From the IMG/VR virus record IMGVR_UViG_3300006931_000007: 64,000 nucleotides of DNA. One strand, written 5' to 3'. The translations under genes and the position numbers were made by a program. This document shows positions 4,754-63,645 of the stretch, piece by piece. Numbering within the stretch: position 1 is the first letter of the stretch; every line of letters starts with the position of its first letter. This DNA comes from a virus. Under the pieces are notes generated by a model that searched no databases, had not been told where the DNA came from, and worked only from the letters and a program-made list of their open reading frames with translations.

Positions 4754-4764
4754 GCTCCATTTCT
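4754..4764 (-). promoter_or_regulatory. conserved leader/SD box AGAAATGGAGC (copy 3)
   Basis: Exact 11-mer. GGAG lies 8 nt before GTG 4746. Confidence 0.6.
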
Positions 4765-4826
4765 GTGTGTACTCAACGCCCAGAGATAATACCGGGCCGG
4801 CTCGGGTAACGCTCGCGGCTTTTCAT

Positions 4827-23595: not shown

Positions 23596-24297
23596 TTATT
23601 CAGCCTCCCAAAAGACTTTGTATTTGTCTCGGCGAACCTGGAGAATCAGCCGAACATATCCGCGGTTGATATCATACGCGCTTTGTCCATATCCGGGGTT
23701 GACCCGGCGCGTTTTGAGACTGGTTGTTTCAACGTTCCCGAACCAGCGACGAGCGTCGCAGGTTCCGGTATTGCTACACAACCGGCGATCCTGAAGGACT
23801 CCGCCTTGACCGCCATTGTACCCGGCCAGCATAAAGGCCAGCTGATCGGTCGGCGTCGCGGCGTCGCGAATCTGCGTGAACAAAGTACGATCCATTTCAA
23901 CAAGCGCATCGAGCTGGAACTTGGGGTCATAGCGATTCTCCCAGGCCCAGTCCTTGAGGGATGCGTGTTGGGCCTTCAGGCCTTTGAAATTGTTGAACCG
24001 CTCGGAGCCGTCCGCCTTATAGGCGATGGTGATTTGGCCGAAGCCGAAACCGTATTCACGGCTGGTCTTGAGTTCGGCCCGGGGATTCCAGCAGCGTTTA
24101 TGCGTGAGGGTGATGCAGCTTTCTTGCTCGACTTGACCGCCGAGGGTCCATGGCTCAGGCGCGGAAGCCCAAGCGACACCCTGGACCGCGGCGAGCGTCG
24201 ATGCGTACAGCTTCGCCTGCTCCGGGATATAGCTGCGAACGTCCGCGGCTAGGGCACCCCCGGCAATCAGGCATAGCAGGATCAGGCCTTTGCCCAT
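23596..24297 (-). CDS. secreted/SAR endolysin, lytic transglycosylase-like
   Basis: Start moved to the internal ATG 24297 (the 345-aa track ORF has an Arg-rich, non-coding-like N-terminal extension). It has a signal-like MGKGLILLCLIAGGALAA and an SLT-like catalytic context GGQVEQESC. Confidence 0.75.
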   Translation of the reverse strand: MGKGLILLCLIAGGALAADVRSYIPEQAKLYASTLAAVQGVAWASAPEPWTLGGQVEQESCITLTHKRCWNPRAELKTSREYGFGFGQITIAYKADGSERFNNFKGLKAQHASLKDWAWENRYDPKFQLDALVEMDRTLFTQIRDAATPTDQLAFMLAGYNGGQGGVLQDRRLCSNTGTCDARRWFGNVETTSLKTRRVNPGYGQSAYDINRGYVRLILQVRRDKYKVFWEAE

Positions 24298-24620
24298 AGC
24301 ACTAGCCCGACGAACAGCGAGGCCAGAAGGAAGCAGACGCCGAACACAACGACGGCAGCGGATAGCGAGCCCCCGCGCGCGGCTTCGATCCACTCTGTTA
24401 AATCGACCTGGGGAAGAAGTAGCCGGCAGACCACAACGCTGTTCGCCGCCAGCGCGAGGCCGAACGCGGACCATTGCAGCAGGGTAAAGAGCATGGGCCG
24501 GTCGATGATCAACAGCGGGATCAGCGCGAGCAAGAGGAGGACCCAGGCGGTCAGATCGAAGAAGGGCGTCATGCGTTTGTACAGACGATCCCACTGGTGT
24601 TGCCAGAATTCTTTGTTCAT
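24282..24620 (-). CDS. holin candidate
   Basis: About 112 aa with three hydrophobic helices. ATG 24620 overlaps the i-spanin stop as ATGA and is preceded by TGGAGCAC 7 nt upstream. Confidence 0.65.
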   Translation of the reverse strand: MNKEFWQHQWDRLYKRMTPFFDLTAWVLLLLALIPLLIIDRPMLFTLLQWSAFGLALAANSVVVCRLLLPQVDLTEWIEAARGGSLSAAVVVFGVCFLLASLFVGLVLWAKA

Positions 24621-25141
24621 TTCGGTGCTCCACACAGTTTAACGGCTGACAACGCCCACTCTTGGAGCTTGGTCAGTTGGCGGGCGGCGCCGTCGGCGTC
24701 GGCGGCGATTCCCCAGAGAGACGCTGAAGCCTCTCCCGAAAGTTCGGCTGTACCGGCACCATCAGTTCCGGCGGGGGTGACTCCAGGCGTACTGGGTCCG
24801 GTTGCATTGCAGTTGGACACTGCGAGGCGCAACCGCTTATTGCCAGTGCGCAGATCAGTAATAGTGGCTTGGTCCTTGGTCTTTTCGATCCCGGACTCAA
24901 GCTGGAATTGGGCGCGAAGGTCCGCGACGGTTTGTGCATGATCCTTCTCCATTGTACGATTCTTGGTGTTGGCTTCGTTCAACTGTCGCGTCAGCTCGCG
25001 CTCGCGCTCCAGGTTCTCCGCCGTCGCCTTTTTCCAGGCGTATGAATAGCCGCCCCAAATGCCGAACCCCCCGAGGAGAAGCCCAACAATCAGGACGGCT
25101 ACACCGACCAGCGCAAACTTCTGCCAGTCGAGTCCGAACAT
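24617..25141 (-). CDS. i-spanin (Rz-like)
   Basis: N-terminal TM (FALVGVAVLIVGLLLGGFGIW) followed by a charged coiled-coil. It fully contains a lipoprotein ORF in another frame. Confidence 0.75.
   Translation of the reverse strand: MFGLDWQKFALVGVAVLIVGLLLGGFGIWGGYSYAWKKATAENLERERELTRQLNEANTKNRTMEKDHAQTVADLRAQFQLESGIEKTKDQATITDLRTGNKRLRLAVSNCNATGPSTPGVTPAGTDGAGTAELSGEASASLWGIAADADGAARQLTKLQEWALSAVKLCGAPK
24673..24939 (-). CDS. o-spanin (Rz1-like lipoprotein) embedded in the i-spanin gene
   Basis: Lipobox LAISGC follows KRPRTKPLLLICA. The mature part is Pro-rich (PDPVRLESPPPELMVPVQP). The true start codon is uncertain. Confidence 0.65.
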   Translation of the reverse strand: MHKPSRTFAPNSSLSPGSKRPRTKPLLLICALAISGCASQCPTAMQPDPVRLESPPPELMVPVQPNFRERLQRLSGESPPTPTAPPAN

Positions 25142-25963: not shown

Positions 25964-26542
25964 TTAAACTTGTTTAACCGCGGCCAGCGAAATCGGAATC
26001 ACGGCAGCGTCCGCCGGTAATACTACCGAGAGAACTGCGCCAGCGATACCGCCATCCACGATAGTGCCGACCAGCGACGGGATCGCACCCTTGCCGTTCG
26101 GAGGAGTGATGGACACGAACAACTTTTTGTCGCCGATGTTGTCGGCGATACCCGCAACCGTGAGCACTTGCGAGGTCGAGTTGTACGCCGCGTTGGCGAT
26201 GACCGGGAGGGCGTTCAAGGCAACAACCAAGGCCGCACCGATTTCGTCGATAGTGTCGTTGGTCACGTCGCCGACTACAGTGACTTCCGCCGGATCAGCC
26301 CCACCAACGCCGAAGCCGCCGCTGATGCGGACATTGAAGGACCAGCCCACCCAATTGGTTCCGGCAACAATGGCCGTGACCGTGGTGTCATTCGCCCAAG
26401 CAAGACCATCCCCATCATAGCGGGCAGAGCAAATTTCTTTGGCAGCGGTTGCGTCGGCAGCGAATACAACTTGGGCGTCCGCGCCTTCAGGAAGATTGTG
26501 ACCGGATTTGTTGCGGTCCATTGTAACTAAATATGCTGGCAT
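25964..26542 (-). CDS. hypothetical head-module protein (possible decoration protein)
   Basis: 192 aa, directly after the major capsid gene and its attenuating hairpin. SD AGGAG upstream. Confidence 0.65.
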   Translation of the reverse strand: MPAYLVTMDRNKSGHNLPEGADAQVVFAADATAAKEICSARYDGDGLAWANDTTVTAIVAGTNWVGWSFNVRISGGFGVGGADPAEVTVVGDVTNDTIDEIGAALVVALNALPVIANAAYNSTSQVLTVAGIADNIGDKKLFVSITPPNGKGAIPSLVGTIVDGGIAGAVLSVVLPADAAVIPISLAAVKQV

Positions 26543-31407: not shown

Positions 31408-33231
31408 TTAAGCAGCGGCTACAGGATACCGATAAAACCGCACCGGCGGCAAACCTTCCGCATTGCGAAGGAAGTTTGTAAATGCGGAGCCATCCGAGTT
31501 CTCCTGCATTGCAGCATAGCTTACCGTCGCGCTTCCGGCGGTAATCGGCGCCGACAGGGTAATATCAACCCGCGTCGTGTCCGCATTTATGACAACAGAG
31601 CTAATCGTTTGGGCAACCCCCGCAACTTCAACCAACCACAAGTTATCAGCGCCTTTGTTTGCAAGGACTTGGTTGAAGAAACAACTCACGACAGTTGTAC
31701 TTCCCGAAACGTTCCGGGCACTGGTTAAGTGAGGATGGCCGACATGAGGCACGTTGTTTCCACTACCGTCGATGACCCGAAGGTTAGGCAACCCCATGAT
31801 CCGATTCGCAATCACCAGAGCGGCACGGCGTCCATTCTCCTTCTGACCAGCAGTAGCTAGGTGGTAACCATCGGTCGAACCGTTCATAGCCACATCCCAC
31901 GTCGGGTATACAAACACCTTTGACGTTTTCGCGGTCGAGGCTTCTTGAATCACCATTTGCGTGAAATCACAAGTTGTGGTTGTACCTCCCGCGTTGCGTT
32001 GTATAGCAAATGAAGTTCCTGCGGTTGCGACAAAGGTAAATTCATATAAGTGATCGCCGGTCAAGCCGCTCGATTGCGTTGCTTGGGCTACTCCGTCAAG
32101 CGTCCATCCAGAAGCTGGGTTGACCAAGTTCAAAGCGATCTTAAACGCCCCAACCGTACAATTCGCCCTGAAACTTATCTTGTATGCGCGACCAATTACA
32201 TAATCGTGCGTAAGAGCAAGCCCATTACCGTCTCCGCCTAACGTCGTCATGCGAACGCCGCCAGCAATGCTCGTGAAATTTGAGGTTGCTGTATTTCCGC
32301 TGATATACCACTCCGGTGCCGCTGCTGTGAGTCCGTTGTTAATTGTTTTCCACGACGAAGTACCGAACGCCGAAGCAATAACAGAACTGTCTCCGTAATC
32401 TTGGTCAAGCTGGCGCTGGCTATCTGCTCCAATCGCTAAAGCGAGAGTAACAGCGGGATCAGTATGGGGAGCCAACTGTGGAATGATGACAGGCACGTTA
32501 CCAAACCAATAACGATAGGCTGAAATCAAAGATACATAATTTGTAGCCCGAGTCTGAGCCGTCCCGCCGGTTTCCCCTTCATGACCGTGGTGAAGGATAA
32601 TCAAGCGAGAGAAATCGCCCTGACATGCCAAGTTCACGCGGTCGCGCATCTGCCCAAACAAAGAAGTGAGCACCGGCGGGTCATCATAAGCGTTCTGCAG
32701 CCATCCCGGAATGAAAGTGGAACCGACCGCACACGGAAGGATCAAAACATCAGCCCCGGTGAGACGCTTGAGCCAATTTGCTAAATCTAACGCCAATGAG
32801 TAGCGCGCGTTGGCTGGGTTTCCCGCGTTCGGCGTCCAGTTGTCTACCGCGCCCGCGTACCGATTGTGGGATGGTTCGGTGAGGTTGCGGTAGACATTAT
32901 CTTTCGCGAGCATCATACAACCGGGAATCGAAAGCGGCAAATTGGCCGGCATAATACCATTGCCTTCTCCGTTCGATTGACCAGCAATAACAATAACCCA
33001 ACGATTGGTCGAACCCAGCTGGCCGAGAAGGCCATGACTACGGTTGTGATTGGATAGGCCGATGGCGGCTTGGTCCGAGCTAATTGGAGTCAGGATATTG
33101 TTGGTGACATCGTATTTGTAATTAACACCATCGACAACATAAGTATCAACTGTATTGAAAATCTGGGTGCCTGAGTTCTTCAAAGCCAAAAGGCGCAATA
33201 CTTCTGTTTTGGAATAGCCGATGGTGCTCAT
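31408..33231 (-). CDS. SASA/DUF303-type carbohydrate O-acetylesterase with inserted and C-terminal beta-domains
   Basis: It has the GQSNGEGNG nucleophile motif, then HHGHEGETGG, and a distal DGYHL (Asp/His) about 370 aa after the Ser. This implies an insertion of roughly 140 aa within the esterase fold. Confidence 0.65.
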   Translation of the reverse strand: MSTIGYSKTEVLRLLALKNSGTQIFNTVDTYVVDGVNYKYDVTNNILTPISSDQAAIGLSNHNRSHGLLGQLGSTNRWVIVIAGQSNGEGNGIMPANLPLSIPGCMMLAKDNVYRNLTEPSHNRYAGAVDNWTPNAGNPANARYSLALDLANWLKRLTGADVLILPCAVGSTFIPGWLQNAYDDPPVLTSLFGQMRDRVNLACQGDFSRLIILHHGHEGETGGTAQTRATNYVSLISAYRYWFGNVPVIIPQLAPHTDPAVTLALAIGADSQRQLDQDYGDSSVIASAFGTSSWKTINNGLTAAAPEWYISGNTATSNFTSIAGGVRMTTLGGDGNGLALTHDYVIGRAYKISFRANCTVGAFKIALNLVNPASGWTLDGVAQATQSSGLTGDHLYEFTFVATAGTSFAIQRNAGGTTTTCDFTQMVIQEASTAKTSKVFVYPTWDVAMNGSTDGYHLATAGQKENGRRAALVIANRIMGLPNLRVIDGSGNNVPHVGHPHLTSARNVSGSTTVVSCFFNQVLANKGADNLWLVEVAGVAQTISSVVINADTTRVDITLSAPITAGSATVSYAAMQENSDGSAFTNFLRNAEGLPPVRFYRYPVAAA

Positions 33232-33683: not shown

Positions 33684-35219
33684 TTACATCTTACCAGTCG
33701 CGACACCGCGCAGTTTCTTCCGTACACGATAGCGCCAGGCATCGCCGATGTGGTCCTCAGTCTCTGTATCCACATCGTCGAGGTCCTTGTCATCGCGCTG
33801 GAGAGTCGGGATCAGCTCTTGCGACTGCAAACAAGTATCGAACACGAACAGACCAGGCATCTCACGCGGGAGACCGTTGGGCATAGGCAACGCGCCCTTC
33901 AGCGCTTTCCTGATCATTTCCCAACCCTGCTTCCGCGAGCCCGGACCCTTATCAGCAGCCTGCCAGCGCACACCCTTCTTGCGCATGTCCGCTTCGATGC
34001 TGTTACCATTCTCAGTGTCGAAGATCGAAGCATCAGCCGGACCTGGCTTGACCCGATTATGGATGCCCCAATCCTCCTCGCGATCCTTGATGCCTTGGGC
34101 GACTTCGACAGCGAGCATTTTCACGCCTTCGTTCCGAGTACCTGACCAGCCATACCATTCAGCAATCTGGTAGGTGTCGCCCTTGAGCTTGCCATACATG
34201 CGGCCTTGATACTCGAACGGCTCACCATTAGATTCGGCCCACCAGCAGACGCTGAAGGGCGCCGAGCTACCCCAGTCAAAGCTGCGGTCAATCTTCCAAC
34301 CGCGAGGGATCATGGTCAATGGCAGCGACGGAACAACGTGTATTTCGCCATTCCAGATATCATCGAACATGCCCCCGGCGAGAATGTCCCAGGAGCCGTC
34401 AAGCCAGGCTTTCAGTTCGCTCGGGTTCCGCGCCGCGGCCCTGATCTTTTGGATGTAATCGGGGTCAGCGTGAAGAAGTATTTTGTTTTCATAGATCGAA
34501 CCATGGATGGCGACCCGAGGCGGCTGAAGCTCGCCGTCCTTGTAGTCGTCAACAATAACCTTGCCGCGACTCTGCGGAAGGCGAAACCGACGCTTGACCC
34601 AGTTATGCCCTGGACCATAGGGATTGGTGGAGGCGCGATAACAACGCGGCATTCCAGGCTTCGTCGAGCGCGAGCACGACATCATAACGGTGTAACACTT
34701 ATCATCAGGCCAGTTGCAAAGCTCCTCCCAACCAATCCAGGGATAGGCGTGGCCGTGGTAGTTCCAATAGTCATCCTGGGTTTTCATGTGGCGCAGCAGG
34801 AGCTGTTCGCCGTCGGGGAAGGTCCAGGTGTGTTCGACCTTGTTGAACTTCGCGCCGGGGAAGATCAGGCGAAACCATTTCTGCGTCTTGGCGATAACGT
34901 CAGTCAGCTGCGGATAGGTTTGACGGAACAGGATGCCGCGCCATTCGGCTCCGAACCCCTTACCAACGTGTTGGAGGAAGTCCATGAGCAAGCAATCGGT
35001 CTTGCCCGGGCCTCGCGTCCCTTCATACAGGACCTCGAACACTGGACAAGCCAAGAACGCCTCTTGCGACCCGGGCTGAGGAGCCCAAGCACAATGGTGG
35101 TAGGTCGCGCCGTCCCAATACTGGGCGCACAACTCGCCGTCATCGTTGACATACCATTCAATGCCCGGCTCCTTCGGACGTTCGATGGTCTCGGCAATAG
35201 CGTCCGCAAGCTCACTCAT
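33684..35219 (-). CDS. terminase large subunit
   Basis: 511 aa. Walker A-like GTRGPGKTD. Its start overlaps the small-subunit gene stop. Confidence 0.85.
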   Translation of the reverse strand: MSELADAIAETIERPKEPGIEWYVNDDGELCAQYWDGATYHHCAWAPQPGSQEAFLACPVFEVLYEGTRGPGKTDCLLMDFLQHVGKGFGAEWRGILFRQTYPQLTDVIAKTQKWFRLIFPGAKFNKVEHTWTFPDGEQLLLRHMKTQDDYWNYHGHAYPWIGWEELCNWPDDKCYTVMMSCSRSTKPGMPRCYRASTNPYGPGHNWVKRRFRLPQSRGKVIVDDYKDGELQPPRVAIHGSIYENKILLHADPDYIQKIRAAARNPSELKAWLDGSWDILAGGMFDDIWNGEIHVVPSLPLTMIPRGWKIDRSFDWGSSAPFSVCWWAESNGEPFEYQGRMYGKLKGDTYQIAEWYGWSGTRNEGVKMLAVEVAQGIKDREEDWGIHNRVKPGPADASIFDTENGNSIEADMRKKGVRWQAADKGPGSRKQGWEMIRKALKGALPMPNGLPREMPGLFVFDTCLQSQELIPTLQRDDKDLDDVDTETEDHIGDAWRYRVRKKLRGVATGKM

Positions 35220-35761
35220 CGCGAGACCTCCCCCTTGGGCTTATGCCCCGGTGGCGGAGGAGCGGCGGGCCGTCCGGTGTTACCCTTCGCAAGCTCGCCA
35301 TAGCCTGATTCCCAATCGGCAACGGTCATACCCTTCGCGGGTACAACCATGACCCCGCCGACGCGACCTTGGTCAGCACTCGACTTGTCAACGCCTTTGA
35401 ATTCATCGCGACGGGATTTCAACAAGAATTGCGTCAGCGAATCGCTGTACACCTGAATGTGAGTAACAATCTCATCCTTGAACTTACCACCAATCACCGG
35501 CGTCTCGACGCCCTGGAAAGCCCGGCGGTACGCCTCCTTGGCTAACTCATCCGTGTTTGCGTCCTTCGCCTCGATACAACGGGCCGCAAACTCAGGGTCA
35601 CGCTTCTTGTGATCTTGGACTGTGCGAGGGGAGACGCCCGCGGCTTCGGCGGACAAGGTGTCATAACCGCATTCACGCAACGCGGCCAGGAATAACTCTT
35701 TGCGCTCGGGGGTGAACTCAACCGGCGGCTTTGGGGTCATCATTTCACTGCGATTCGGCAT
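35216..35761 (-). CDS. terminase small subunit
   Basis: Start moved to ATG 35761 (GAGGAAG lies 5 nt upstream). HTH-like LSAEAAGVSPRTVQDHKKRDPEF. It lies upstream of the large terminase gene. Confidence 0.7.
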   Translation of the reverse strand: MPNRSEMMTPKPPVEFTPERKELFLAALRECGYDTLSAEAAGVSPRTVQDHKKRDPEFAARCIEAKDANTDELAKEAYRRAFQGVETPVIGGKFKDEIVTHIQVYSDSLTQFLLKSRRDEFKGVDKSSADQGRVGGVMVVPAKGMTVADWESGYGELAKGNTGRPAAPPPPGHKPKGEVSR

Positions 35762-35817
35762 CACGCTTCCTCGGGGCTCGAATATGTGACGCAGCATCAC
35801 GCTTTGTCTTGGCTCGC

Positions 35818-37593: not shown

Positions 37594-37979
37594 CCCATTT
37601 TCAGATCAGAAAGGTTGGTGAGCGCCCCAGTGTAGTCCCAGTAGCGGTCCCATTCGTTGTTACAGTTGTAAACTACCCAAACGCCGTCGGTTCTCCCGGG
37701 GCGAATCTCTTTCACCATCCCATTCTCCCAGCGCGCGTCGCCGTAGTGCTCGGGTTGGTAGTGAACCTTATCGCCGACCTGTAATTGGATCGTGTCCACG
37801 AGGTTCGAGCCTTCGCGGCGAATATCTGCATTCAGGGGCTTCTGGATCGGAAGCGACACCAGCGGATCGCCGAGGAGCGGCGTCACGCGAATGTGGTGAT
37901 CATCCTCGAACGTAATACAGGCGCGCTGACCCTTCAGCGATCCCTCCAGGAACGTAATGAGCTCAACGGGCCGGCGCAT
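37584..37979 (-). CDS. hypothetical protein
   Basis: 131-aa ORF in the early block. Confidence 0.6.
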   Translation of the reverse strand: MRRPVELITFLEGSLKGQRACITFEDDHHIRVTPLLGDPLVSLPIQKPLNADIRREGSNLVDTIQLQVGDKVHYQPEHYGDARWENGMVKEIRPGRTDGVWVVYNCNNEWDRYWDYTGALTNLSDLKMGWK

Positions 37980-38742
37980 GGGCTTTCTCCGCGGCGGCTT
38001 CCGCCTTCAGTATCTTCTTATGAACCGCTTCAAAGGTCCGTGCCGGGGCCTTAATCAGCACCTCGTCATAGGGCCGTGTCTCGACCGGCTTGAGCCACTT
38101 CGATAGCTCGCGGAACGTGATTGGGCGAGTTAGCCGGAGCAGATCGGGGTTGGTTATAAAGAGGCGCATCATTTCAGCGAACCATTCGCCGTCGTTTGGG
38201 CAGTAGTTCGTCAGCTTTTCCTCGCCCGAGGCTTTGCGAATGTTCTTGCTGAATTCGGAATTATAGGCGTTGCCGTTCTTTACATTGCCCAACACGACAT
38301 CGACGTGGTGCCCGATCTCATGCGCCAGGACGCCGTAGGGCTCGCGGTCCACGGTGTACCCCGGATAGGACCAGGACGCCCCGCCGGTTCCGATATGCGC
38401 ACAGCGTTCGAGGCAGATTGCTATGTATGTTGGGCGATAATACGCACAGTGACCGGGTATCCGCCATTCATCCGGCGTGCTCACGCGGACCTCGGGCACG
38501 ATCAGGTTATTGGCTTCGCAGAATTTGGTTATGCGGATCACTCCGCGGTCGAACAGATCGCGTTTGCTCACAGGAAAGGCCCCCGGCGCAGCTGGCGCAT
38601 TGACACGTAGACGATAGCGAAATCCAGGACCTGTTCGAGGACCAGGAGACCGATGATGGTGTAAGCAACGTAGCTCATTCTTGTATCCTCGATTGGAATT
38701 CAGATTTTGCGCCCTCGCCGCGTTGGCTGACCGCGTAGTCAT
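37963..38742 (-). CDS. ImmA/IrrE-like HExxH zinc metallopeptidase (tentative)
   Basis: LAHEIGHH followed by EWFAEMMRLF resembles the M78-type HExxH plus E-x2-A-x3-F arrangement. The start is uncertain: ATG 38742 overlaps the upstream gene by 68 nt, and GTG near 38571 is an alternative. Confidence 0.5.
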   Translation of the reverse strand: MTTRSANAARAQNLNSNRGYKNELRCLHHHRSPGPRTGPGFRYRLRVNAPAAPGAFPVSKRDLFDRGVIRITKFCEANNLIVPEVRVSTPDEWRIPGHCAYYRPTYIAICLERCAHIGTGGASWSYPGYTVDREPYGVLAHEIGHHVDVVLGNVKNGNAYNSEFSKNIRKASGEEKLTNYCPNDGEWFAEMMRLFITNPDLLRLTRPITFRELSKWLKPVETRPYDEVLIKAPARTFEAVHKKILKAEAAAEKAHAPAR

Positions 38743-40892: not shown

Positions 40893-41024
40893 TTAGATGT
40901 TCGCCAGAAGCTCCGCGCGATCTTGCGCTTGTTGCTTCAGCTTTCCCGACGCTTCCGAGGTGAAGTGACACGCACCAACGGCAACGATAACCAGGGCAAC
41001 CAAACTTTCATTTCCGTGCTCCAT
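40893..41024 (-). CDS. possible 43-aa membrane peptide (alternative: 24-aa ORF from ATG 41011)
   Basis: Manual translation MEHGNESLVALVIVAVGACHFTSEASGKLKQQAQDRAELLANI. It would start at the ATG inside the leader box. A 24-aa ORF, MKVWLPWLSLPLVRVTSPRKRRES, starts 7 nt after GGAG in another frame. Confidence 0.35.
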   Translation of the reverse strand: MEHGNESLVALVIVAVGACHFTSEASGKLKQQAQDRAELLANI

Positions 41025-41028: not shown

Positions 41029-41042
41029 TAATCTGTATAAGA

Positions 41043-41070
41043 AGTATAGTGGAGCCGTCGGAAAAGTAAA
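41043..41070 (-). promoter_or_regulatory. phage promoter TTTACT-N16-TATACT
   Basis: Minus strand reads ACTTTACTTTTCCGACGGCTCCACTATACTTC, nearly identical to the element at 42233..42260. Confidence 0.55.
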
Positions 41071-41075
41071 GTCAA

Positions 41076-41729
41076 CTAATGAATCTTTTTGCGTCTTGAC
41101 CAAAATAAAGCGACAAGCCCTGAGCCCAACAGATAGATCGCTGAGGGTTCCGGGACGCTCGCGACGGTTCCGGGTGTCGTTGGCAGGGTCTCGCAACAGT
41201 CGGGACAGGTCTGGACAACATAGCCCCCGCCTCCACCGTAATAGCTCGGAGGAAACCAGCCCGCGATGTCGTTATGAGTGACAACGATGTCCTGCCCAAT
41301 CACTCCTTCGTCGAAGGGCGTCATGGTCTCCTCGGGGGTGAATGTCGTTGCTTGGGCTTCAGGCTTTGGATCGAACGGTGGCGGACCCTGATAGACGGTC
41401 CAGCCGCTCGGGTCCTCCTTCTCATAGACGCCCATCTTGTTCGGCGCGCGGCGACCGCTCGCCATATCGTCGTTTAACTTTTTGTACATGCGTTCCGAGG
41501 CGAGGCGCTGGGCGCGCTCCTCCGCGGTCATCGGCTTTACGTCGAGCGAGGGGACGGGCTCGCCGTGACGCGAGACCTCGACCGCTGTCAAGCCGCCGGG
41601 GGCAACGGGTCGCAGCCGGTCCTCTGCTTGGGCTTTGTAGCTATCGACCGCGCACTTGGACAGTAGGAGGATCGCGAGCAGGGCGGCAACCGTTGCCCCA
41701 CCGATGAACAGATTGTTACGCGCTTTCAT
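41076..41729 (-). CDS. PEP-CTERM sorting-signal protein with N-terminal signal anchor
   Basis: The C-terminus VPEPSAIYLLGSGLVALFWSRRKKIH has the three parts of a PEP-CTERM signal: a PEP motif, a hydrophobic helix and a basic tail. The N-terminus is FIGGATVAALLAILLL. Confidence 0.7.
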   Translation of the reverse strand: MKARNNLFIGGATVAALLAILLLSKCAVDSYKAQAEDRLRPVAPGGLTAVEVSRHGEPVPSLDVKPMTAEERAQRLASERMYKKLNDDMASGRRAPNKMGVYEKEDPSGWTVYQGPPPFDPKPEAQATTFTPEETMTPFDEGVIGQDIVVTHNDIAGWFPPSYYGGGGGYVVQTCPDCCETLPTTPGTVASVPEPSAIYLLGSGLVALFWSRRKKIH

Positions 41730-41913
41730 GTTGTATCTCCGGGTAATCGAAACGATGGGGAGCTTGGCCCTGACGTTCTTGAAAATTGAAACAGTTTTGT
41801 ACGATCTTCGCCAACTCCCGTTGGGTCAGGTCGCCATCGTAAAATGCCTTGAACTCGCCGCTGAGATAATCCCCGAGCGGAGGAGTTATGGCCACTATGC
41901 GTACAGCGTTCAT
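41716..41913 (-). CDS. hypothetical protein
   Basis: 65-aa ORF, coupled to the downstream gene. Confidence 0.5.
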   Translation of the reverse strand: MNAVRIVAITPPLGDYLSGEFKAFYDGDLTQRELAKIVQNCFNFQERQGQAPHRFDYPEIQHESA

Positions 41914-41925: not shown

Positions 41926-42201
41926 TCAGTATCGGTAAAGGTGAATGACGATAGGTTTCTGGATTTCGCCACGGTCAACACGCCACAGCATCTCACCGAC
42001 ATCACCGGGGAGAATCTTGTAACAGGCGTGTTGCGCTTCGTCCGTTTTCGCATCGAGCTTACAGCGCGCTACGTCGATGACATCACCCTTGCCGGGCTCG
42101 ACCGGGTGGGTGTAGTAGCGCGTCGGAATAACGCGAGGCATGAAGGCGTCCTCCGCGTGCGCGATCCCGGTGAGCAACATTAGCAAAACAAAAGCCTTCA
42201 T
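41926..42201 (-). CDS. small secreted protein
   Basis: Signal peptide MKAFVLLMLLTGIAHA. First gene after the promoter at 42233..42260. Confidence 0.6.
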   Translation of the reverse strand: MKAFVLLMLLTGIAHAEDAFMPRVIPTRYYTHPVEPGKGDVIDVARCKLDAKTDEAQHACYKILPGDVGEMLWRVDRGEIQKPIVIHLYRY

Positions 42202-42232
42202 GATCTAATCCATTTCCTCAGTCTGTTCGAGA

Positions 42233-42260
42233 AGTATAGTGAGACCGCTCGAAAAGTAAA
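42233..42260 (-). promoter_or_regulatory. phage promoter TTTACT-N16-TATACT
   Basis: Minus strand reads ACTTTACTTTTCGAGCGGTCTCACTATACTTC. It is followed by the variant leader AGGAAATGGAT. Confidence 0.55.
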
Positions 42261-42264
42261 GTTG

Positions 42265-42813
42265 TTATCCAATAATTCTTAAATGGTTCAGCGCGCTCAC
42301 CAACTGGATACATTGACGCCGGCAATCCTCCGCCGCATCATGCTTGGGGTCCCCGCCTTCGGGTTCCGCCCAAACACCGATAGTCCGAGCGAGGTCAATC
42401 ACCGTCCGGGTATCGCGCGGCTGATTGTAACGCCAGGGGCGCTTGATTCCCAGGCGGTCATAGTAGCCTTCGAGCACGGTCAGATCAAAGGTTGGACCCT
42501 TCGCCCAAACACGTTCAATCGTCGGGTACTGCCCGAGCCAGTTGCTCAGCGCGTGAAGCACCACGCCGATCTGCTTGGGCTCAATTTGGTCGAGCCCTTC
42601 TTGTTCGCGCCACCAGGCCGTCGTCAGGCGATCCGTTTCACCGCCGGCCATAATCGAGGACATCAGGTCAACGTCCTCGCGGAAGATATCAGGGGGCATC
42701 ATTCCGGTCTGCCAGTCGAATACCAGCGCACCGATCTGAATCACTGCGGCGTCGCGGTTTACACCCATTGTTTCGATGTCAATCATGACGTCTGTTAGGT
42801 TCACATCGCTCAT
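42265..42813 (-). CDS. DnaQ-like (DEDDh) 3'-5' exonuclease
   Basis: Start moved to ATG 42813 (ATGA overlap). Exo I MIDIETMG and C-terminal HDAAEDC motifs. Confidence 0.75.
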   Translation of the reverse strand: MSDVNLTDVMIDIETMGVNRDAAVIQIGALVFDWQTGMMPPDIFREDVDLMSSIMAGGETDRLTTAWWREQEGLDQIEPKQIGVVLHALSNWLGQYPTIERVWAKGPTFDLTVLEGYYDRLGIKRPWRYNQPRDTRTVIDLARTIGVWAEPEGGDPKHDAAEDCRRQCIQLVSALNHLRIIG

Positions 42814-43091
42814 TTCTTGGTCCTCATTTTGATTTCTTCCGACGCAATAAGCTCCTGGACCACCGGGCATTGCTCCGGGGTTTCCTGGCCGTTGACTACT
42901 TCGCAAAAGATGTCGCCGAAACGGCGATCACGTGAAAAACAGTGACAGTCTTTACAGTACCCGAAGCCGCCGTGATTCTCGAAATAGGCTTCAGCGATCT
43001 GTTGACCTGTACATTTACCGCCACCAAAGCGGTGCGGGAATGGATAAGCGATACAGTTGCACACATACTCTCCTTTTCTTTTCTTCCGCAC
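42810..43091 (-). CDS. Cys-rich hypothetical protein
   Basis: 93 aa with a GTG start and about 9 Cys (CNC, GGGKC, CKDCHC, C..V, C). Confidence 0.55.
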   Translation of the reverse strand: MRKKRKGEYVCNCIAYPFPHRFGGGKCTGQQIAEAYFENHGGFGYCKDCHCFSRDRRFGDIFCEVVNGQETPEQCPVVQELIASEEIKMRTKK

Positions 43092-43168: not shown

Positions 43169-43894
43169 TCAATCGTGGGAAATCAGAACATTGGTTGGTT
43201 TGTTCGGCTTGGGGAGGTTGTTACAAACATCCTCCGACAGCGTCGCCGTCGCCGGGTCCGAGGTGAGCGGAATCAGTTGATTGTCGGTAACAGTAACGTC
43301 AAACACCGTCCCGGCCTTAAAGCACTGACCCTTTGCAATCGGTACAACCTTATGGCAAGGAGGCGCCTGAACCGCGGGCAATAACGGAACGCGAACCGTT
43401 GCGGGTTGCGTGTATCCGAAAGTGTAGCCCGCGATTTCGGTTGCAGCAAACACGCTGTTGTCCGTCCGCGTAGTTGGAGCTTGACAATCAAGTACAACTT
43501 GCGTCGAAGCCTGTGCCCCGCTCGGGACGAATAGCCCAACCAGAAGCAGAGCCCCGAGGATAGCCGCCAGCGGCGTACCCGGTGCGCCCGTCGTGGTTTT
43601 CACCTGCGAGGACGGCGTGTTGACCGCACTGTTGATGGTAAATCCCATGAAGAACAAGGCCAGCAAGCCTTCCGCCGAGGACGTACTGACCGCCCCGCTC
43701 AACGCCGACGCGATAGCGCCGCCGAAGATCGTGAACAGCGTCCAAAGCGTCGGACGCCAGCTGTTGGGCCCCCAATACTCGCGCAGGGAGTCGATGCCGC
43801 CCCGCAGGTAGGTTTTTAGAGCGTGAGCGAACGCCCCGAGGAAGATCACACCGACAGTCAGCAGCAACTGCGGCAACAAAGTTTTCCAGTCCAT
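43169..43894 (-). CDS. polytopic membrane protein with extracytoplasmic C-terminal domain
   Basis: 241 aa with 3-4 N-terminal hydrophobic helices, then a Cys-containing beta-rich C-terminus. Confidence 0.65.
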   Translation of the reverse strand: MDWKTLLPQLLLTVGVIFLGAFAHALKTYLRGGIDSLREYWGPNSWRPTLWTLFTIFGGAIASALSGAVSTSSAEGLLALFFMGFTINSAVNTPSSQVKTTTGAPGTPLAAILGALLLVGLFVPSGAQASTQVVLDCQAPTTRTDNSVFAATEIAGYTFGYTQPATVRVPLLPAVQAPPCHKVVPIAKGQCFKAGTVFDVTVTDNQLIPLTSDPATATLSEDVCNNLPKPNKPTNVLISHD

Positions 43895-49011: not shown

Positions 49012-49026
49012 GTTCGCCGCCGGGAA

Positions 49027-49056
49027 AGTATAGTTGTGTGAGTTCGTAAAAGTAAA
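49027..49056 (-). promoter_or_regulatory. phage promoter TTTACT-N18-TATACT
   Basis: Minus strand reads ACTTTACTTTTACGAACTCACACAACTATACTTTC. Confidence 0.5.
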
Positions 49057-49063
49057 GTAATTT

Positions 49064-55643: not shown

Positions 55644-56181
55644 CGGCCATTGCTTCCTCGAAGAAGTCCGACAGGCGCCCGCGGTTCGAGTTGAAGTTGT
55701 CCACGAAGAAGCGGACCTCACCCGGCAGCGTACCTTCGTCATGGCGTTTCATTAGTACGTCGAAACAAACCTGGAACATTTGCTGGACGCGCTTGTTGCC
55801 AAGGCGGTGTTCTTCCCAGCACCACAGCCAGAGGTCGAGCGTGTCAACGGCCTTGAGCCACTGAGTTTCCTCCTCTGTCAAGACCTGAGCCAATTCAAGC
55901 GTTTCGAGGATCGCTTGTTCAGCCTCCTCATAAACGCGGCCCAGGTCGGGGTTGGAATACTTCGCCGGGGCCGGCATATCACCCAACCAGCGTTCGCCGA
56001 CATCGTGCCACTGTACGGCCTTGATCAGCGCGAGCGACGGCCCGGGGTGAAGCAGGAGGAGCAGCGACAGCGCACCATAACTGTGTTGGGCGATGTTATA
56101 CTGACCGTGATGGGGGATTATATGACACCGGCGCACCGCGCCGGCCTCCCGAGTCGCGAGGACCTGCAAGAATTTATTCAT
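55618..56181 (-). CDS. HD-domain phosphohydrolase (YfbR-like 5'-deoxynucleotidase type)
   Basis: Start moved to ATG 56181, an 8-nt overlap with the ThyA-like stop. H...HD...D pattern: IIPHHGQYNIAQHS ... VQWHDVGERWLGD. Confidence 0.7.
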   Translation of the reverse strand: MNKFLQVLATREAGAVRRCHIIPHHGQYNIAQHSYGALSLLLLLHPGPSLALIKAVQWHDVGERWLGDMPAPAKYSNPDLGRVYEEAEQAILETLELAQVLTEEETQWLKAVDTLDLWLWCWEEHRLGNKRVQQMFQVCFDVLMKRHDEGTLPGEVRFFVDNFNSNRGRLSDFFEEAMADGPGKARG

Positions 56182-57244
56182 ATGCGACTCCGTTATCATT
56201 CGCTTTAGCCTGGCGCTCAAGATAAGCCCGACGCCGCCGCTCAATCCACTCCTTTCCAGCCAGCTGCCAATCAGTCGCCTTGACGTTGTCGAGGTGTTGT
56301 TGAGCTTCATCAAAGCGGATTTCCCCTTGTCCGGTTTTCTTGAACGCTGCGTGGGCCAGCATCATCGGAACCGCGACCCGACGGAAGAAAGGATCACGCA
56401 AACCCATTGCAGTCGGGTTATCCATGAACATTTCCAGATCATCGCGCCACTGCTCCAGATCGGTACTGATCAGCGGGTAGGGCTCGACCTCGGGCATGCC
56501 CTTGCGCCAAGCGTAGGGGTCCATCACGGTCATTCCGGGAACGTCGAAGTTGGCATGCTCCGCGAGAATTTCCATTGTCTTCAACACTTCGGTATAGGCG
56601 TGAAAGTTCGCCGACACCTGACGATATATCCCCTGCTCGACGCCGACGCCCCGGGCGACATACTCGTGAAGATAGCTGAAATGAACCGCGTTGGCGCCGT
56701 AGGCTCCCCATATAATATCGTTGGAGCGATTGGTCACGGTCATATCCAACCGGCCATCGGGAGCGATCTGGAAAATGGCCTGGAGATTGCAGGGAAGGTC
56801 CTTGCCGAGACGGCCCAAGTCAGCGCGCGCGTCCCACATCGAAAGAACCTGGCGGCGGTCGGTCGGGTCCTTCTTCAGCGCGTCGATAATAACAGGGAGC
56901 TGATCGAACAGGAAATGTTTGCGCCAGCGCCAGCCGTAGGCTCCATGGAAGGTTACGCCGTCATCACTGAAGGAGCGCATGCGCTCGACGTACCGGGCAA
57001 CGAATTCCACGTCATTGCGTCCACCCAACATCCAGAGCGATTCGACCAGGTGAAAGAACGGGTTGGCGTCGCGTTCGGCCCAAAACAGAACGCGCTCCGC
57101 CGGGCGCTCATAGACCGTCGTGACCGGCTCCGGGAACACCAGGACGGGTCCATTGCGCGAATCGCGGGCGACGCCTTCCAGCTTCAGCTGGCGGATCGCC
57201 TCGGGTAAGGCTTGATGGACGTTACGGGCACGAATCACTTTCAT
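56174..57244 (-). CDS. ThyA-family pyrimidine C5-methylase/hydroxymethylase (predicted dUMP hydroxymethylase)
   Basis: Thymidylate-synthase motifs: SRNGPV, ESLWMLGG, AYGWRWR, DRRQVLSMWD, catalytic LPCNLQ, and NRSNDIIWGAYGAN. The hydroxymethylase assignment, as opposed to dTMP synthase, is inferred from context only. Confidence 0.75.
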   Translation of the reverse strand: MKVIRARNVHQALPEAIRQLKLEGVARDSRNGPVLVFPEPVTTVYERPAERVLFWAERDANPFFHLVESLWMLGGRNDVEFVARYVERMRSFSDDGVTFHGAYGWRWRKHFLFDQLPVIIDALKKDPTDRRQVLSMWDARADLGRLGKDLPCNLQAIFQIAPDGRLDMTVTNRSNDIIWGAYGANAVHFSYLHEYVARGVGVEQGIYRQVSANFHAYTEVLKTMEILAEHANFDVPGMTVMDPYAWRKGMPEVEPYPLISTDLEQWRDDLEMFMDNPTAMGLRDPFFRRVAVPMMLAHAAFKKTGQGEIRFDEAQQHLDNVKATDWQLAGKEWIERRRRAYLERQAKANDNGVAYE

Positions 57245-57819
57245 TTCTTGGCTCCTTTCTTCTCCGGCGGGAGGCCGAACTGTTTGTTGAGGTCTTGGAT
57301 TGGGAGTGCGGGCAGATTCACCTTGCCTTCGCCGGGGAGGAAATCTGCGCAGAAGGGCGCGATTTCAGGCCATACTTCACAGAGCTTCTTGACGGTGCTA
57401 ACGCTATCGAGGACAGCGCGAGCGGAGCGCCTGGCGTGTTCGCGGGCTTCGTTATGATCGTTGCGGCGTTTACAAAGAACCGCATAACGTTCGCTCATTG
57501 GATCATTGTTAGCCAATACCAACGCGATATTACTGCGGTGTTTATCGAATATCCGGCGGTGTTCCCCGAAACTAACGCGAGACCAATTGTTATCAATCCC
57601 CTCGAAACGGATACGCAAATCATCGTCCGTCGGCAAGGCCCCTTCTGGCATTGCGTTCATAGATTCTTGTATCTTCTTCGGATAAACCTTGTTGTAAATA
57701 TCGTTTCCGAATTTGAGAAAGTCGGCGTTGATCGCCTTATCTTTATCGTCAAATCCAGCTTTTGCGAGGCGAGAGAGCAATTCATCTTTCATCCACGTAT
57801 TCAAGCGAATCGAGGCCAT
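57241..57819 (-). CDS. hypothetical protein inside the hypermodification operon
   Basis: 192-aa ORF, translationally coupled on both sides. No motif recognised. Confidence 0.65.
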   Translation of the reverse strand: MASIRLNTWMKDELLSRLAKAGFDDKDKAINADFLKFGNDIYNKVYPKKIQESMNAMPEGALPTDDDLRIRFEGIDNNWSRVSFGEHRRIFDKHRSNIALVLANNDPMSERYAVLCKRRNDHNEAREHARRSARAVLDSVSTVKKLCEVWPEIAPFCADFLPGEGKVNLPALPIQDLNKQFGLPPEKKGAKK

Positions 57820-57821
57820 TT

Positions 57822-58745
57822 CTATTCTCCGTTTCTGGTAAGGTCAGTGGCTTTGCGCCAGTCATATTTCGAGCGCATCTTGCCGTCTCCGGCTTGAACA
57901 CGTTCGTACTTATCAAACTCGCAAAGCGAGTGTTCCACGTCGCGCATTTCGAGCCGCGGCCACTTCTCCGGCCAGAGCATCGGGTTGGCGTTCATTTGTT
58001 CCATGAGCAGAAACATTTCGTTGTTGGTCTGCTCCTTCTTCGGCTGCGTGTTCAATTCCCGACCATACAACCGATTCAGCCCGCGGATTGCGCCGGGACC
58101 AGCATTGGCCCAAGTCATAATGTCCGGGGCGTCGCGGAGGTAGCGGGTATGACGGAGGTCAGTCACTACCTCATAGGCCATGAAGGGACCCCAGCCGATG
58201 AAATAAGGCTCCTGAAATAAGTCCCAAACATCTTCAAGCGTCGCCGGAGATTCAAGCCGGCACTCAAACTGATCCCGATATTCCCACAAGCGACCGATAA
58301 CGATTTCAGCAATATAACGGTGCTTAGTCCAAACGTACCATGGTTTGTTCGGATCGGACTCCGCGCGGATCATGTACGCGCCGGTGTAGACCTTGTGACC
58401 CATCGCCGCGAGCCCTTCGAGCGCCGTGGTCAAATACTCCGGGGTGAACTCCGGGTGACTCGGCCAAGCCTTCGATTCGATCAGGGCGGCGAGCGTTGGG
58501 GGCCAGTTAATGTAGCGAGCGATACAAAGCATCAACCAGAGGTTCGGGTGATCGGCGTAGGGCTCGCGGATATTCTCGCGAACCCAAATGGTCACCGTGT
58601 CGAGTTCCCGGAAGATGTTACAGAACCGACCGTCACGAAGCACCGGGTCATCGGTCCACGGACCGGGCCAACCTCCGATCCGCTTCAGATAGATGTTGTG
58701 GCGCGCTTTCATAAAGCGGCTGAGGGCTTCGGTTCTTGGGCTCAT
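57822..58745 (-). CDS. aGPT-Pplase-like DNA base hypermodification enzyme, paralogue 1 (tentative)
   Basis: Start moved to ATG 58745 (ATGA overlap with the kinase stop). WTDDPVLRDGRFCNIFRELDTVT and the C-terminal EHSLCEFDKY resemble my memory of alpha-glutamyl/putrescinyl thymine pyrophosphorylases. Context supports this. Confidence 0.55.
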   Translation of the reverse strand: MSPRTEALSRFMKARHNIYLKRIGGWPGPWTDDPVLRDGRFCNIFRELDTVTIWVRENIREPYADHPNLWLMLCIARYINWPPTLAALIESKAWPSHPEFTPEYLTTALEGLAAMGHKVYTGAYMIRAESDPNKPWYVWTKHRYIAEIVIGRLWEYRDQFECRLESPATLEDVWDLFQEPYFIGWGPFMAYEVVTDLRHTRYLRDAPDIMTWANAGPGAIRGLNRLYGRELNTQPKKEQTNNEMFLLMEQMNANPMLWPEKWPRLEMRDVEHSLCEFDKYERVQAGDGKMRSKYDWRKATDLTRNGE

Positions 58746-59479
58746 TGCGGTGCTCCACAGGAGATACAGACGCCCCGAGGACTGATGTTGGGCTTGTCGC
58801 AGCATGTTGTATTCTGAATCGAACTTTTCTGAAGGGGCGCCGGGTACTCAGTGACCCATGGACTATCAGGGAGAACTGATTTGTGGTGGTTTCGCACCTC
58901 TGGGTCAATAGGGTGACGCATAAAATTTATCAACGCTTTGATATCACGCAAAGCCGTCTGCCAATGAAGATCGCAAACAGCCTCGCCATCAAACATAGCT
59001 TTGTCTCGTACTCGCGCTATCGTGCGGTGCTTATCGGCCACCTGATCCTCTTTGATAGGCTTGCCGCCGTTACGCTCCTGAATCCGGCCCAAGCATATCT
59101 CCAGCGGAGTGTCGAGGAACGCCCAGGCCATGCCTCCGTTGGCACGCGACCAATCGCGCCAAGGGCCATAGATAGTGCTTACTACAACGCCCTCGAATAG
59201 AATGAAATCCACCTGCGGATCGCGCGCGACGAATTCCAAAATGTCTTTGGCGGCTTGTTGAGTTTTTATCCGGTCGCAACCAGCTGTGGTCGCGCCCGCC
59301 GCCGCGCGGGTGTAGTCACCAATAATTGCGAGCCCGTTTGGAATATAGGTGACGGGTATGCGACAATCATGCGCGGGCATGACGATAGACTGAACCTGGC
59401 ATAGCGGATCGGTCGCGAGCGAGCGGAGGAGAGTTGTTTTGCCGGAGCCATTACAGCCCCGGATGTTTATGAATTTCAT
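58742..59479 (-). CDS. P-loop kinase (candidate 5-hmdU DNA kinase)
   Basis: N-terminal Walker A RGCNGSGKTTLL. About 245 aa. It is adjacent to the aGPT-Pplase-like and radical SAM genes. Confidence 0.6.
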   Translation of the reverse strand: MKFINIRGCNGSGKTTLLRSLATDPLCQVQSIVMPAHDCRIPVTYIPNGLAIIGDYTRAAAGATTAGCDRIKTQQAAKDILEFVARDPQVDFILFEGVVVSTIYGPWRDWSRANGGMAWAFLDTPLEICLGRIQERNGGKPIKEDQVADKHRTIARVRDKAMFDGEAVCDLHWQTALRDIKALINFMRHPIDPEVRNHHKSVLPDSPWVTEYPAPLQKSSIQNTTCCDKPNISPRGVCISCGAPQ

Positions 59480-59503
59480 GTCGTGCTCCTTTTCGGGTGT
59501 TGC

Positions 59504-60952: not shown

Positions 60953-60978
60953 GGGGGTATCTCCTATGAATGAGAAAA

Positions 60979-61008
60979 AGTCTACTCCAGGACGGGGCGA
61001 GAAGTAAA
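60979..61008 (-). promoter_or_regulatory. candidate internal promoter TTTACT-N18-TAGACT
   Basis: A family member with a weaker -10, lying in the 72-nt gap between the PLP and radical SAM genes. Confidence 0.4.
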
Positions 61009-61024
61009 CTATTATTACTTGGAT

Positions 61025-61873: not shown

Positions 61874-62178
61874 GGTTCAATCTCCCAATAGGTCTCGGCG
61901 TGATTCAGGCCCGGGGTGCCGTCTTTCTTGAGCACAAACCCGGTTGCGCGCCAGTGGAATTGCCCGCGGCCCTCGCTGATTAAGGCTATGCGCACAACTT
62001 GCATACTGCTTCCGCGATACGAATAGCCGGTGATTTCGACAATGTCCCCGGGCTTCGCCGGGGATTCAACCAAGCTGGCCTCCGTGTATTTCTCTAACTC
62101 CTCTCGCGCCATCCGCACGGCTTGTTCCAGGCGTTGTAATTCGGCGACTCGGGCGCCGCTCATTTTGACTATGGTCAT
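61867..62178 (-). CDS. hypothetical protein inside the hypermodification operon
   Basis: Start moved to ATG 62178 (AAGGAAA upstream, directly after the upstream stop). Confidence 0.55.
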   Translation of the reverse strand: MTIVKMSGARVAELQRLEQAVRMAREELEKYTEASLVESPAKPGDIVEITGYSYRGSSMQVVRIALISEGRGQFHWRATGFVLKKDGTPGLNHAETYWEIEPC

Positions 62179-62180
62179 CA

Positions 62181-63053: not shown

Positions 63054-63061
63054 GCGGGCTC

Positions 63062-63088
63062 CCGAAAAGAGGAGGGCCAGAGCCCTCC
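63062..63088 (-). terminator. intrinsic terminator upstream of the hypermodification operon
   Basis: Minus strand reads GGAGGGC-TCTG-GCCCTCC followed by TCTTTTCGG. Confidence 0.65.
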
Positions 63089-63095
63089 CAATCTT

Positions 63096-63557: not shown

Positions 63558-63564
63558 AACGTAT

Positions 63565-63575
63565 GCTCCATTTCT
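63565..63575 (-). promoter_or_regulatory. conserved leader/SD box AGAAATGGAGC (copy 9)
   Basis: Exact 11-mer. Confidence 0.6.
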
Positions 63576-63645
63576 AGCGTCCGATAATGGACGGAGGTTC
63601 AACCGTAAAATATCGAGCAGAAAAAGTAAAGCGGGTACGTTATTT

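Follow-up and report, generated by a model that had tools for sequence, protein, structure and literature searches.

A tailed-phage accessory gene encodes a small predicted envelope protein with a PEP-CTERM sorting signal

In a 64,000-nucleotide stretch of viral DNA (IMG/VR record IMGVR_UViG_3300006931_000007; the whole stretch is hereafter the window), we identified a minus-strand gene for a 217-amino-acid protein whose C-terminus is very probably a genuine PEP-CTERM domain, the sorting signal associated with the exosortases of Gram-negative exopolysaccharide (EPS) producers. The protein ends in TCPDCCETLPTTPGTVASVPEPSAIYLLGSGLVALFWSRRKKIH. Within this tail, VPEP is followed by SAIYLLGSGLVALFWS and then by RRKK, which gives the tripartite layout of these signals. 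The TIGR02595 (PEP_CTERM) model aligned with residues 192–215 over all 24 of its positions (E = 4.5e-5) and scored 24 bits against a cut-off of 16, and Pfam PF07589 scored 23.4 bits against a gathering score of 20.7. The first-pass annotation of this DNA had quoted the C-terminus as a complete tripartite PEP-CTERM signal and proposed the TIGR02595 hidden Markov model (HMM) as a check; the signal is present and lies above both curated cut-offs. It stops 2 residues short of the C-terminus, and in bacterial proteins a median of 3 residues follows the 24-residue domain (Haft et al. 2006, PMC1569441).

Conservation of the tail was assessed in a 17-sequence family alignment. V192, E194, P195 and G204 were invariant although identity to the window protein was only 24–38%, and 13 of the 17 members matched TIGR02595 individually at E ≤ 0.01. 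The match is therefore more than chance, given its extreme C-terminal placement, the invariance of V, E and P and the 13 individual matches. As judged from its sequence, the tail has every feature by which a PEP-CTERM domain is recognised. Profiles of named PEP-CTERM families (floc_PepA NF033554, XDP1 NF041927, THxN NF038125, NF038129 and CCXG NF038118) aligned at their ends with the C-terminal 25–35 residues. Membership of these families was rejected, since the matches were to the tail only and reached 16–23 bits against cut-offs of 65–125. A crude six-frame regular-expression screen of the window flagged three PEP-like tails, of which only this one was convincing. The other two stretches, at 62912–63190 (+) and 26275–26526 (−), were flagged by regular expression only and lie within longer open reading frames (ORFs) that are supported by homology and run in a different frame or on the opposite strand.

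Both the gene and its tail are real and show purifying selection. Compared with the two closest relatives, on contigs L001 and L028, the ratio of non-synonymous to synonymous substitution rates (dN/dS) was 0.17 (L001; dS 0.92) and 0.08 (L028), and over the last 35 codons it was 0.05–0.25. The start of the ORF overlaps the stop of the preceding ORF (41716–41913) by 14 nt. Many long spurious ORFs arise on both strands of GC-rich phage DNA, and the alternative would be a spurious ORF of this kind, or a PEP-like motif that arose by chance in DNA that is non-coding or read out of frame. Selection and conservation refute this alternative, to which we give next to no weight: dN/dS is low (0.08–0.18) while dS reaches 0.9, the gene has a Shine-Dalgarno sequence, all neighbouring genes run in the same direction, the same architecture recurs in homologues down to 24% identity and both HMM scores exceed their curated cut-offs.

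At the other end of the protein, MKARNN is followed by the hydrophobic segment LFIGGATVAALLAILLL and then by SKC. Mean Kyte-Doolittle hydropathy over 17 residues exceeded 1.5 for windows starting at residues 5–15, an equivalent segment was found in all 17 family members, and there was no internal hydrophobic window between it and the tail. The N-terminal segment is thus predicted to be a Sec signal peptide or a signal anchor, with a possible signal peptidase I site after S-K-C. The signal anchor of the first-pass annotation was borne out to this extent: the hydrophobic segment is there, and it could act in either way. No lipobox was found at the residues before Cys26, where Lys occupies position −1, and the relative P0003 has no Cys at this place. 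The Cys-rich CPDCC that had also been pointed out near the tail was located 13 residues before VPEP, and one or more Cys align at this Gly/Cys patch in about 10 of the 17 sequences. Outside the tail, R94, K98 and G100 were invariant in all 17 sequences (an RxxxKxG motif).

Pro, Gly, Thr and Glu are abundant in residues 35–189, whose net charge is −9. Their Thr content (9.0%) fits typical PEP-CTERM composition; Ser makes up 3.9%, Asn 1.9% and Cys 1.9% (3 of 155). AlphaFold2 (AF2), run with the 17-sequence alignment, gave a mean predicted local distance difference test score (pLDDT) of 60 and a predicted template modelling score (pTM) of 0.24, compared with a pLDDT of 44 when four sequences were used. 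Only three helices were confident, at residues 6–38 (pLDDT 81–85), 69–91 (about 90) and 197–216 (about 91), and residues 43–58 and 121–186 were predicted to be disordered. In this model, the protein appears to have no globular or enzymatic fold. A profile search of the PDB found nothing (best E 0.74), and PHROGs, Pfam, NCBIfam and PADLOC returned no matches for the protein and its neighbours beyond the sorting tail; PADLOC and anti-phage defence families had no match for any of them at E ≤ 0.01.

We then considered the relatives of the protein and where their genes lie. A word-indexed search of 5.8 billion proteins gave three homologues only (P0001, 95%; P0002, 77%; P0003, 31%), all of which keep S-VPEPSA. 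When 1.84 billion cluster representatives were searched exhaustively with a profile, 28 matches were obtained at E ≤ 1e-3. About 15 of these were full-length relatives of 180–250 amino acids, and the remainder were tail-only matches to ordinary PEP-CTERM proteins or fused gene predictions. The 17 aligned sequences share an N-terminal hydrophobic segment, a central (M/F)Y..LNADI.SGRRA..K(M/S)G, a Gly run often followed by Cys, and the PEP-CTERM tail. In P0006 and P0027 the motif is degenerate (VSEP). P0022 (contig L004, 10001–10684) has an extra hydrophobic extension of ∼25 residues beyond the basic cluster, which may be read-through or a decayed signal.

Contexts of the distant members were taken from the best 8000 candidates of the word-indexed searches, through which few members were reachable. 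Counting the window, seven loci were informative: four are clearly phage (the window, L001, L028 and L004), one is the edge of a prophage next to an integrase (L005) and two are short arrays of tightly packed small ORFs (L026 and L027). A further contig of 728 bp (L002) was uninformative on context. L001 and L028 are fragments syntenic with the window and resemble Pseudomonas phage YuA. Contigs nearly identical to the window phage are present in the samples ERZ27252134 and SRR22868758. In contrast, the L004 gene comes from a different phage type, on a 62.7-kb contig that also carries genes for a primase-polymerase, Thy1, RNase H, GGDEF, holin, LysC and terminase. In L005, which we read as a prophage end, the family gene is found at the margin of a small-ORF array, beside a YqeY-family gene and two genes away from a phage integrase; the flanking genes had no NCBIfam matches. 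No partner gene was common to the window, L004 and L005, and the GC content of the family loci ranged from 42% to 62%. The gene therefore appears to be a stand-alone accessory module that moves among unrelated phages of diverse hosts. The family comprises about 15 clusters, and every context that could be read is phage-like.

The window itself is phage DNA, as the first-pass annotation had supposed. PHROG matches covered packaging and head functions (portal, head-morphogenesis protein, major head protein and large terminase), the tail (tape measure and tail proteins) and replication (primase, DNA polymerase and helicase), and in tblastn 43 window ORFs were collinear with YuA at 26–90% amino-acid identity. 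Collinearity spans the gp15 homologue (57.2–57.8 kb) to the gp77 homologue (8.4–9.5 kb), and the portal protein is 69% identical to that of YuA. Homologues of gp02, gp04 and gp05 lie at 1–4.8 kb (1–4776) and those of the gp08–15 region at 57241–64000. Therefore, the window crosses the YuA map origin and holds no host flank. Since no terminal repeat was found within it either, either the genome exceeds 64 kb or the record is a permuted or concatemeric one. GC content is 56%. Judged by the order and similarity of its replication, packaging, head, lysis and tail genes, the phage is a new YuA-like siphovirus (Mesyanzhinovviridae), and the PEP-CTERM gene sits in a non-structural accessory region upstream of the terminase genes.

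This hypervariable accessory slot (35.8–42.3 kb) is the only long stretch of the window without similarity to YuA. It is bordered by the exonuclease gene (42265–42906; gp41 homologue) and the small terminase gene (35216–35800). In YuA the slot holds gp42–gp49, including the GGDEF protein gp44, annotated with a ‘putative role in host cell conversion’, and an anti-restriction protein. The window genes of the slot showed no sequence similarity to YuA gp42–49, and blastn of the region 35.9–43.9 kb against cultured phages gave scattered matches only, none of them over the PEP-CTERM gene. The slot of Bordetella phages FP1 and MW2 also has a GGDEF gene. Indeed, GGDEF (diguanylate cyclase) genes occur in or near the same accessory region in L004 (14930–15397), YuA (gp44), FP1 and MW2. 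GGDEF and PEP-CTERM proteins both relate to the control of EPS and biofilm, which may be a common theme.

Within the slot, two promoter repeats enclose a unit in which the PEP-CTERM gene comes third (Table 1). The repeat is a 33-nt element, ACTTTACTTTTC-N4-GG-N3-CACTATACTTCT, with two exact-pattern copies where chance would give 0. A third copy shares the core CTTTACTT...CACTATACTT. This core matches YuA repeats annotated as a ‘putative sigma70 promoter requiring phage-encoded cofactor’, among them a repeat that also comes after the YuA exonuclease gene, and all three window copies are intergenic at positions equivalent to annotated YuA repeats. A YuA-type phage promoter is therefore presumed to drive the three-gene unit. 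Genes around the unit encode many small products that are predicted to be directed to the envelope. Just past the PEP-CTERM gene, an ORF of ∼40 amino acids (40893–41024, −) contains AVGAC, which resembles a lipobox; compared with L001, an indel of 4 nt alters its N-terminus and start codon, and its mature part is conserved. A 241-amino-acid protein (43169–43894, −), syntenic in L001, has several N-terminal hydrophobic segments and a soluble C-terminal part of ∼110 residues, and had no match in PHROGs, Pfam, NCBIfam or PADLOC. A 259-amino-acid ORF (37963–38742, −) had weak matches to HExxH zinc metallopeptidases, and the corresponding region of FP1 and MW2 is annotated ‘SprT’.

Based on these features, we propose that the gene is a phage accessory (‘moron’-type) gene for a small envelope-targeted protein with a genuine PEP-CTERM signal, which on balance is probably processed by a host exosortase. 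No exosortase-like protein was found in the window, where those larger ORFs that were tested are YuA homologues or otherwise assigned and the scanned accessory ORFs gave no such match. Any processing would therefore need a host enzyme, and for this reason Sec export followed by presentation to the host exosortase is the best-supported reading. The N-terminal signal would route the protein through Sec, leaving residues ∼27–190, acidic and largely disordered save for one conserved helix and a basic motif, in the periplasm. The C-terminal helix would remain in the inner membrane, with RRKK in the cytoplasm and VPEP on the side facing the periplasm. Both ends (MKAR and RRKK) agree with the positive-inside rule, and the same topology is given for PEP-CTERM proteins (Haft et al. 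2006, PMC1569441). A host exosortase of the XrtA/EpsH type would then recognise the tail and cut at PEP, releasing the mature polypeptide to the cell surface or the EPS layer; exosortases cleave PEP-CTERM signals (Haft 2023 preprint). Judged separately, exosortase-dependent processing is an outcome that we consider somewhat probable.

The role of the product is the weakest step of this proposal. The mature acidic polypeptide of ∼160 residues might convert the surface or matrix of the infected or lysogenic cell, for example by masking receptors or by superinfection exclusion, and we put forward a surface-conversion or exclusion role only tentatively. The first-pass annotation had likewise suggested superinfection exclusion or surface remodelling by way of the host exosortase. 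Such a role is favoured because the gene occupies slots of the conversion type, namely the accessory slot of YuA and, in L005, the prophage end nearest the integrase, and because of its presumed co-transcription with a secreted protein and the small envelope proteins around it.

Several observations weigh against this proposal. We infer cleavage at PEP from the sequence alone, and the functional role is likewise pure inference. The window has a single PEP-CTERM gene, whereas in bacterial genomes the domain is typically multi-copy (Haft et al. 2006, PMC1569441). A lack of paralogues is as expected for a phage, however, and copy number is properly a matter for the host genome. No sigma-54/PrsR-type site (TGGCAC-N5-TTGC) was found near the gene, and proteobacterial PEP-CTERM genes are usually multi-copy, single-gene operons with such a site. 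Residues 35–189 have more Cys, and less Ser and Asn, than typical PEP-CTERM proteins, in which Cys averages 0.4% and Thr, Ser and Asn are enriched (Haft et al. 2006, PMC1569441). In addition, tblastn with the window protein gave no match in 50,697 cultured-phage records, and three scans of IMG/VR with family alignments A1, A6 and A7 gave no relatives, so that the phage association rests on the seven loci described above. The host also bears on the proposal. The window has no tRNAs. In cultured phages, relatives of its tail fibre reached ≤39% identity and came from phages of Burkholderiales and Xanthomonadales hosts (Ralstonia, Curvibacter, Xylella and Xanthomonas phages). Among 185,579 genomes they reached ≤38% identity and were scattered over Alpha-, Beta- and Gammaproteobacteria, including Rhodospirillaceae, Burkholderia, Roseateles, Rhodocyclaceae and Ferrovum, with metagenome-assembled genomes among them, and were not decisive for the host. 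As matches of ≤38% give no host, the host exosortase is a presumption of the proposal.

This uncertainty over the host enzyme would also suit an inner-membrane protein that works independently of exosortase, in which the helix and basic cluster are an anchor, the PEP is inherited or convergent, and the protein acts in the inner membrane or periplasm, perhaps to block the injection of DNA from other phages. Small bitopic membrane proteins are common among the superinfection-exclusion proteins of phages, and the extension of P0022 and the degenerate VSEP of P0006 and P0027 also count in favour of an anchor. However, a mere anchor needs neither V-x-E-P invariance at 24–38% identity, nor above-cut-off PEP-CTERM scores in most members, nor placement exactly 2 residues from the end. 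Because the motif is so strictly conserved, we disfavour this explanation and consider it rather unlikely. Another rival reading is a decoy or inhibitor, in which the tail docks on the host exosortase and the central helix with RxxxKxG, or the Cys patch, stalls the enzyme. Sorting of host PEP-CTERM proteins would then be blocked and the EPS or floc matrix loosened, aiding the release or spread of progeny. The tail is conserved as in real substrates, there is an invariant motif outside it (R94, K98 and G100) together with an atypical Cys patch, and the rest of the protein is predicted to be disordered, with no enzymatic fold. Furthermore, PEP-CTERM proteins and EPS are both described as required for floc formation in Zoogloea (PMC9012009). 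A decoy and a normal substrate look the same in sequence, however, and the temperate relative L005 would harm the matrix of its own lysogen; we regard this mechanism as unlikely.

A unimolecular spanin or other lysis protein, as T1 gp11, would combine an outer-membrane lipoprotein signal at Cys26 with a C-terminal inner-membrane helix. In favour of this, a Cys comes after the hydrophobic segment at the N-terminus of the window protein, the C-terminus has a transmembrane helix and the linker is of periplasmic length. Yet LSKC, with Lys at −1, does not form a lipobox, and the Cys is missing from P0003 and most other relatives. An Rz-type spanin (PF03245) is already encoded elsewhere by the phage, 16 kb away and beside the holin and endolysin homologues (23596–24633), and in L004 a distance of 8 kb separates the family member from the holin and LysC genes. 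With no lipobox, and with a lysis cassette including Rz elsewhere, we rejected a unimolecular-spanin role as highly improbable. Presentation to a host exosortase thus remains our preferred explanation. The family may even be the first recognised family of virus-encoded exosortase clients, in which a dedicated effector of ∼200 amino acids, made up of a signal peptide, the helix with RxxxKxG, a Gly/Cys patch and the PEP-CTERM tail, is fed to host XrtA and decorates the surface or EPS, or jams the enzyme; we see this as a serious possibility, at somewhat less than an even chance.

Comparison with known systems places the protein close to PEP-CTERM/exosortase substrates (EpsH, XrtA) of Gram-negative EPS producers (Haft et al. 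2006, PMC1569441). It shares with them the tripartite tail 2 residues from the C-terminus, a predicted N-terminal signal, the lack of an internal transmembrane segment, a Thr/Pro-rich linker and the lack of homology outside the tail. Unlike them, it is relatively Cys-rich and encoded by a tailed phage, as a single copy in a tight phage operon with a presumed phage promoter, on a replicon without a cognate exosortase. In location it resembles the accessory genes of YuA-like phages (Mesyanzhinovviridae), whose slot likewise lies between the exonuclease gene with its promoter repeat on one side and the small terminase gene on the other. The cargo differs, being a PEP-CTERM protein and other small envelope proteins with no similarity to gp42–49.

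Phage-encoded substrates of host envelope sorting have precedents. The LPXTG protein SasX is encoded on a Staphylococcus prophage and is a substrate of host surface sorting, and the phage lipoproteins Cor and Llp use the host Lgt/Lsp/Lol pathway. In concept these are alike, as a phage accessory gene borrows host envelope sorting by means of a short signal in order to reshape the cell surface or keep other phages out. They differ in that the pathway proposed here is exosortase, not sortase or Lol, the host envelope type is different and the function of the window protein is predicted. We found no report in the literature of a PEP-CTERM protein or exosortase link in tailed phages. The sole virus-like mention was of the Dehalococcoides IME1 virus-like elements, where a PEP-CTERM domain is noted in passing on the conserved gene HOG10 (bioRxiv 10.64898/2026.09.15.751708). 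In contrast to the window phage, that element is filamentous or budding-virus-like and its host has no classical outer membrane. What appears to be new is therefore a phage-restricted family of PEP-CTERM proteins, the class of sorting signal being already known.

Table 1. Features of the PEP-CTERM gene and its surroundings in the window
Feature	Coordinates	Strand	Basis and remarks
PEP-CTERM protein coding sequence	41076..41729	−	217 aa, ATG start, stop codon 41076–41078; ORF list
Shine-Dalgarno GGAG	41737..41740	−	7 nt before ATG; CTCC on + strand; read off sequence, conserved in L001
N-terminal segment, residues 1–26: basic n-region, 17-residue hydrophobic core, SKC	41652..41729	−	Hydropathy, AF2 helix, family alignment
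Conserved helix and motif MYKKLNDDMASGRRAPNKMGV, residues 69–105	41415..41525	−	Family signature outside tail; family alignment, AF2
Gly/Cys-rich patch YYGGGGGYVVQTCPDCC, residues 164–179	41193..41240	−	Gly run in family consensus
PEP-CTERM sorting domain, residues 191–217 (SVPEP, helix SAIYLLGSGLVALFWS, RRKK, then IH)	41079..41159	−	TIGR02595, PF07589, AF2 helix, family invariants
Unit gene 1: 91-aa protein, predicted classical signal peptide (MKAFVLLMLLTGIAHA/ED)	41926..42201	−	ORF; syntenic in L001 and L028; no family match
Unit gene 2: 65-aa protein without hydrophobic segment	41716..41913	−	ORF; syntenic in L001 and L028
YuA-type promoter repeat (TTTACT-N16-TATACT)	42230..42262	−	Directly downstream of exonuclease gene; presumed promoter of three-gene unit; conserved in L001
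Second promoter repeat copy	41040..41072	−	4 nt past stop codon of PEP-CTERM gene; end of unit, start of next; conserved in L001
Third promoter repeat copy	49026–49057	−	Intergenic
Lysis cassette, YuA gp60–62 homologues (Rz/holin/endolysin)	23596–25141		24617–25141 is Pfam Phage_lysis (Rz, PF03245)

Elsewhere in the window, further genes were observed. A 607-amino-acid ORF (31408–33231, −) is inserted after the large terminase gene and before the portal gene, a place where YuA has no gene; residues 78–257 match a Pfam SASA/SGNH carbohydrate esterase domain, and nothing similar was found by tblastn among 50,697 phage records. The product may be an O-acetyl esterase that acts on EPS or capsule, a hint that would fit a polysaccharide-coated host. 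At 56174–63053 (−) there is a thymidine-hypermodification set, with a deoxyuridine hydroxymethylase-like thymidylate synthase homologue, a 5-hydroxymethyldeoxyuridine DNA kinase (two ORFs), a protein annotated ‘DNA repair photolyase’ (phrog_9252), a pyridoxal phosphate enzyme and an amino acid:DNA transferase. These genes suggest that the phage DNA is modified, and modified DNA has been reported for YuA/M6-type phages. Two tandem paralogous genes resembling tail-fibre or assembly genes (6139–7266 and 7270–8427, −; phrog_9998/9600) have no YuA counterpart; their nearest relatives, at ≤38–39% identity, are in the Ralstonia, Curvibacter, Xylella and Xanthomonas phages named above and in metagenome-assembled genomes that include Roseateles, Rhodocyclaceae and Ferrovum.

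PEP-CTERM/exosortase systems are widespread in environmental, biofilm- and floc-forming bacteria and are poorly characterised biochemically. If the tail were only an anchor, the protein would simply add to the small membrane proteins already known from phages. If, on the other hand, phages carry a conserved substrate or ligand of exosortase, this would show that viruses tap the exosortase pathway, and the protein, being compact (about 190 residues when mature), portable and largely unstructured by prediction, could serve as a probe for exosortase recognition and cleavage. The gene could also mark the hosts of uncultivated phages as exosortase-positive bacteria with an outer membrane, a marker that would be read from sequence only. 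The finding could further bear on how phages affect activated-sludge flocs and biofilms: if the proposal is true, tailed phages of EPS- and floc-forming Gram-negative bacteria, both lytic YuA-like and temperate, would gain control of the matrix or of access to receptors.

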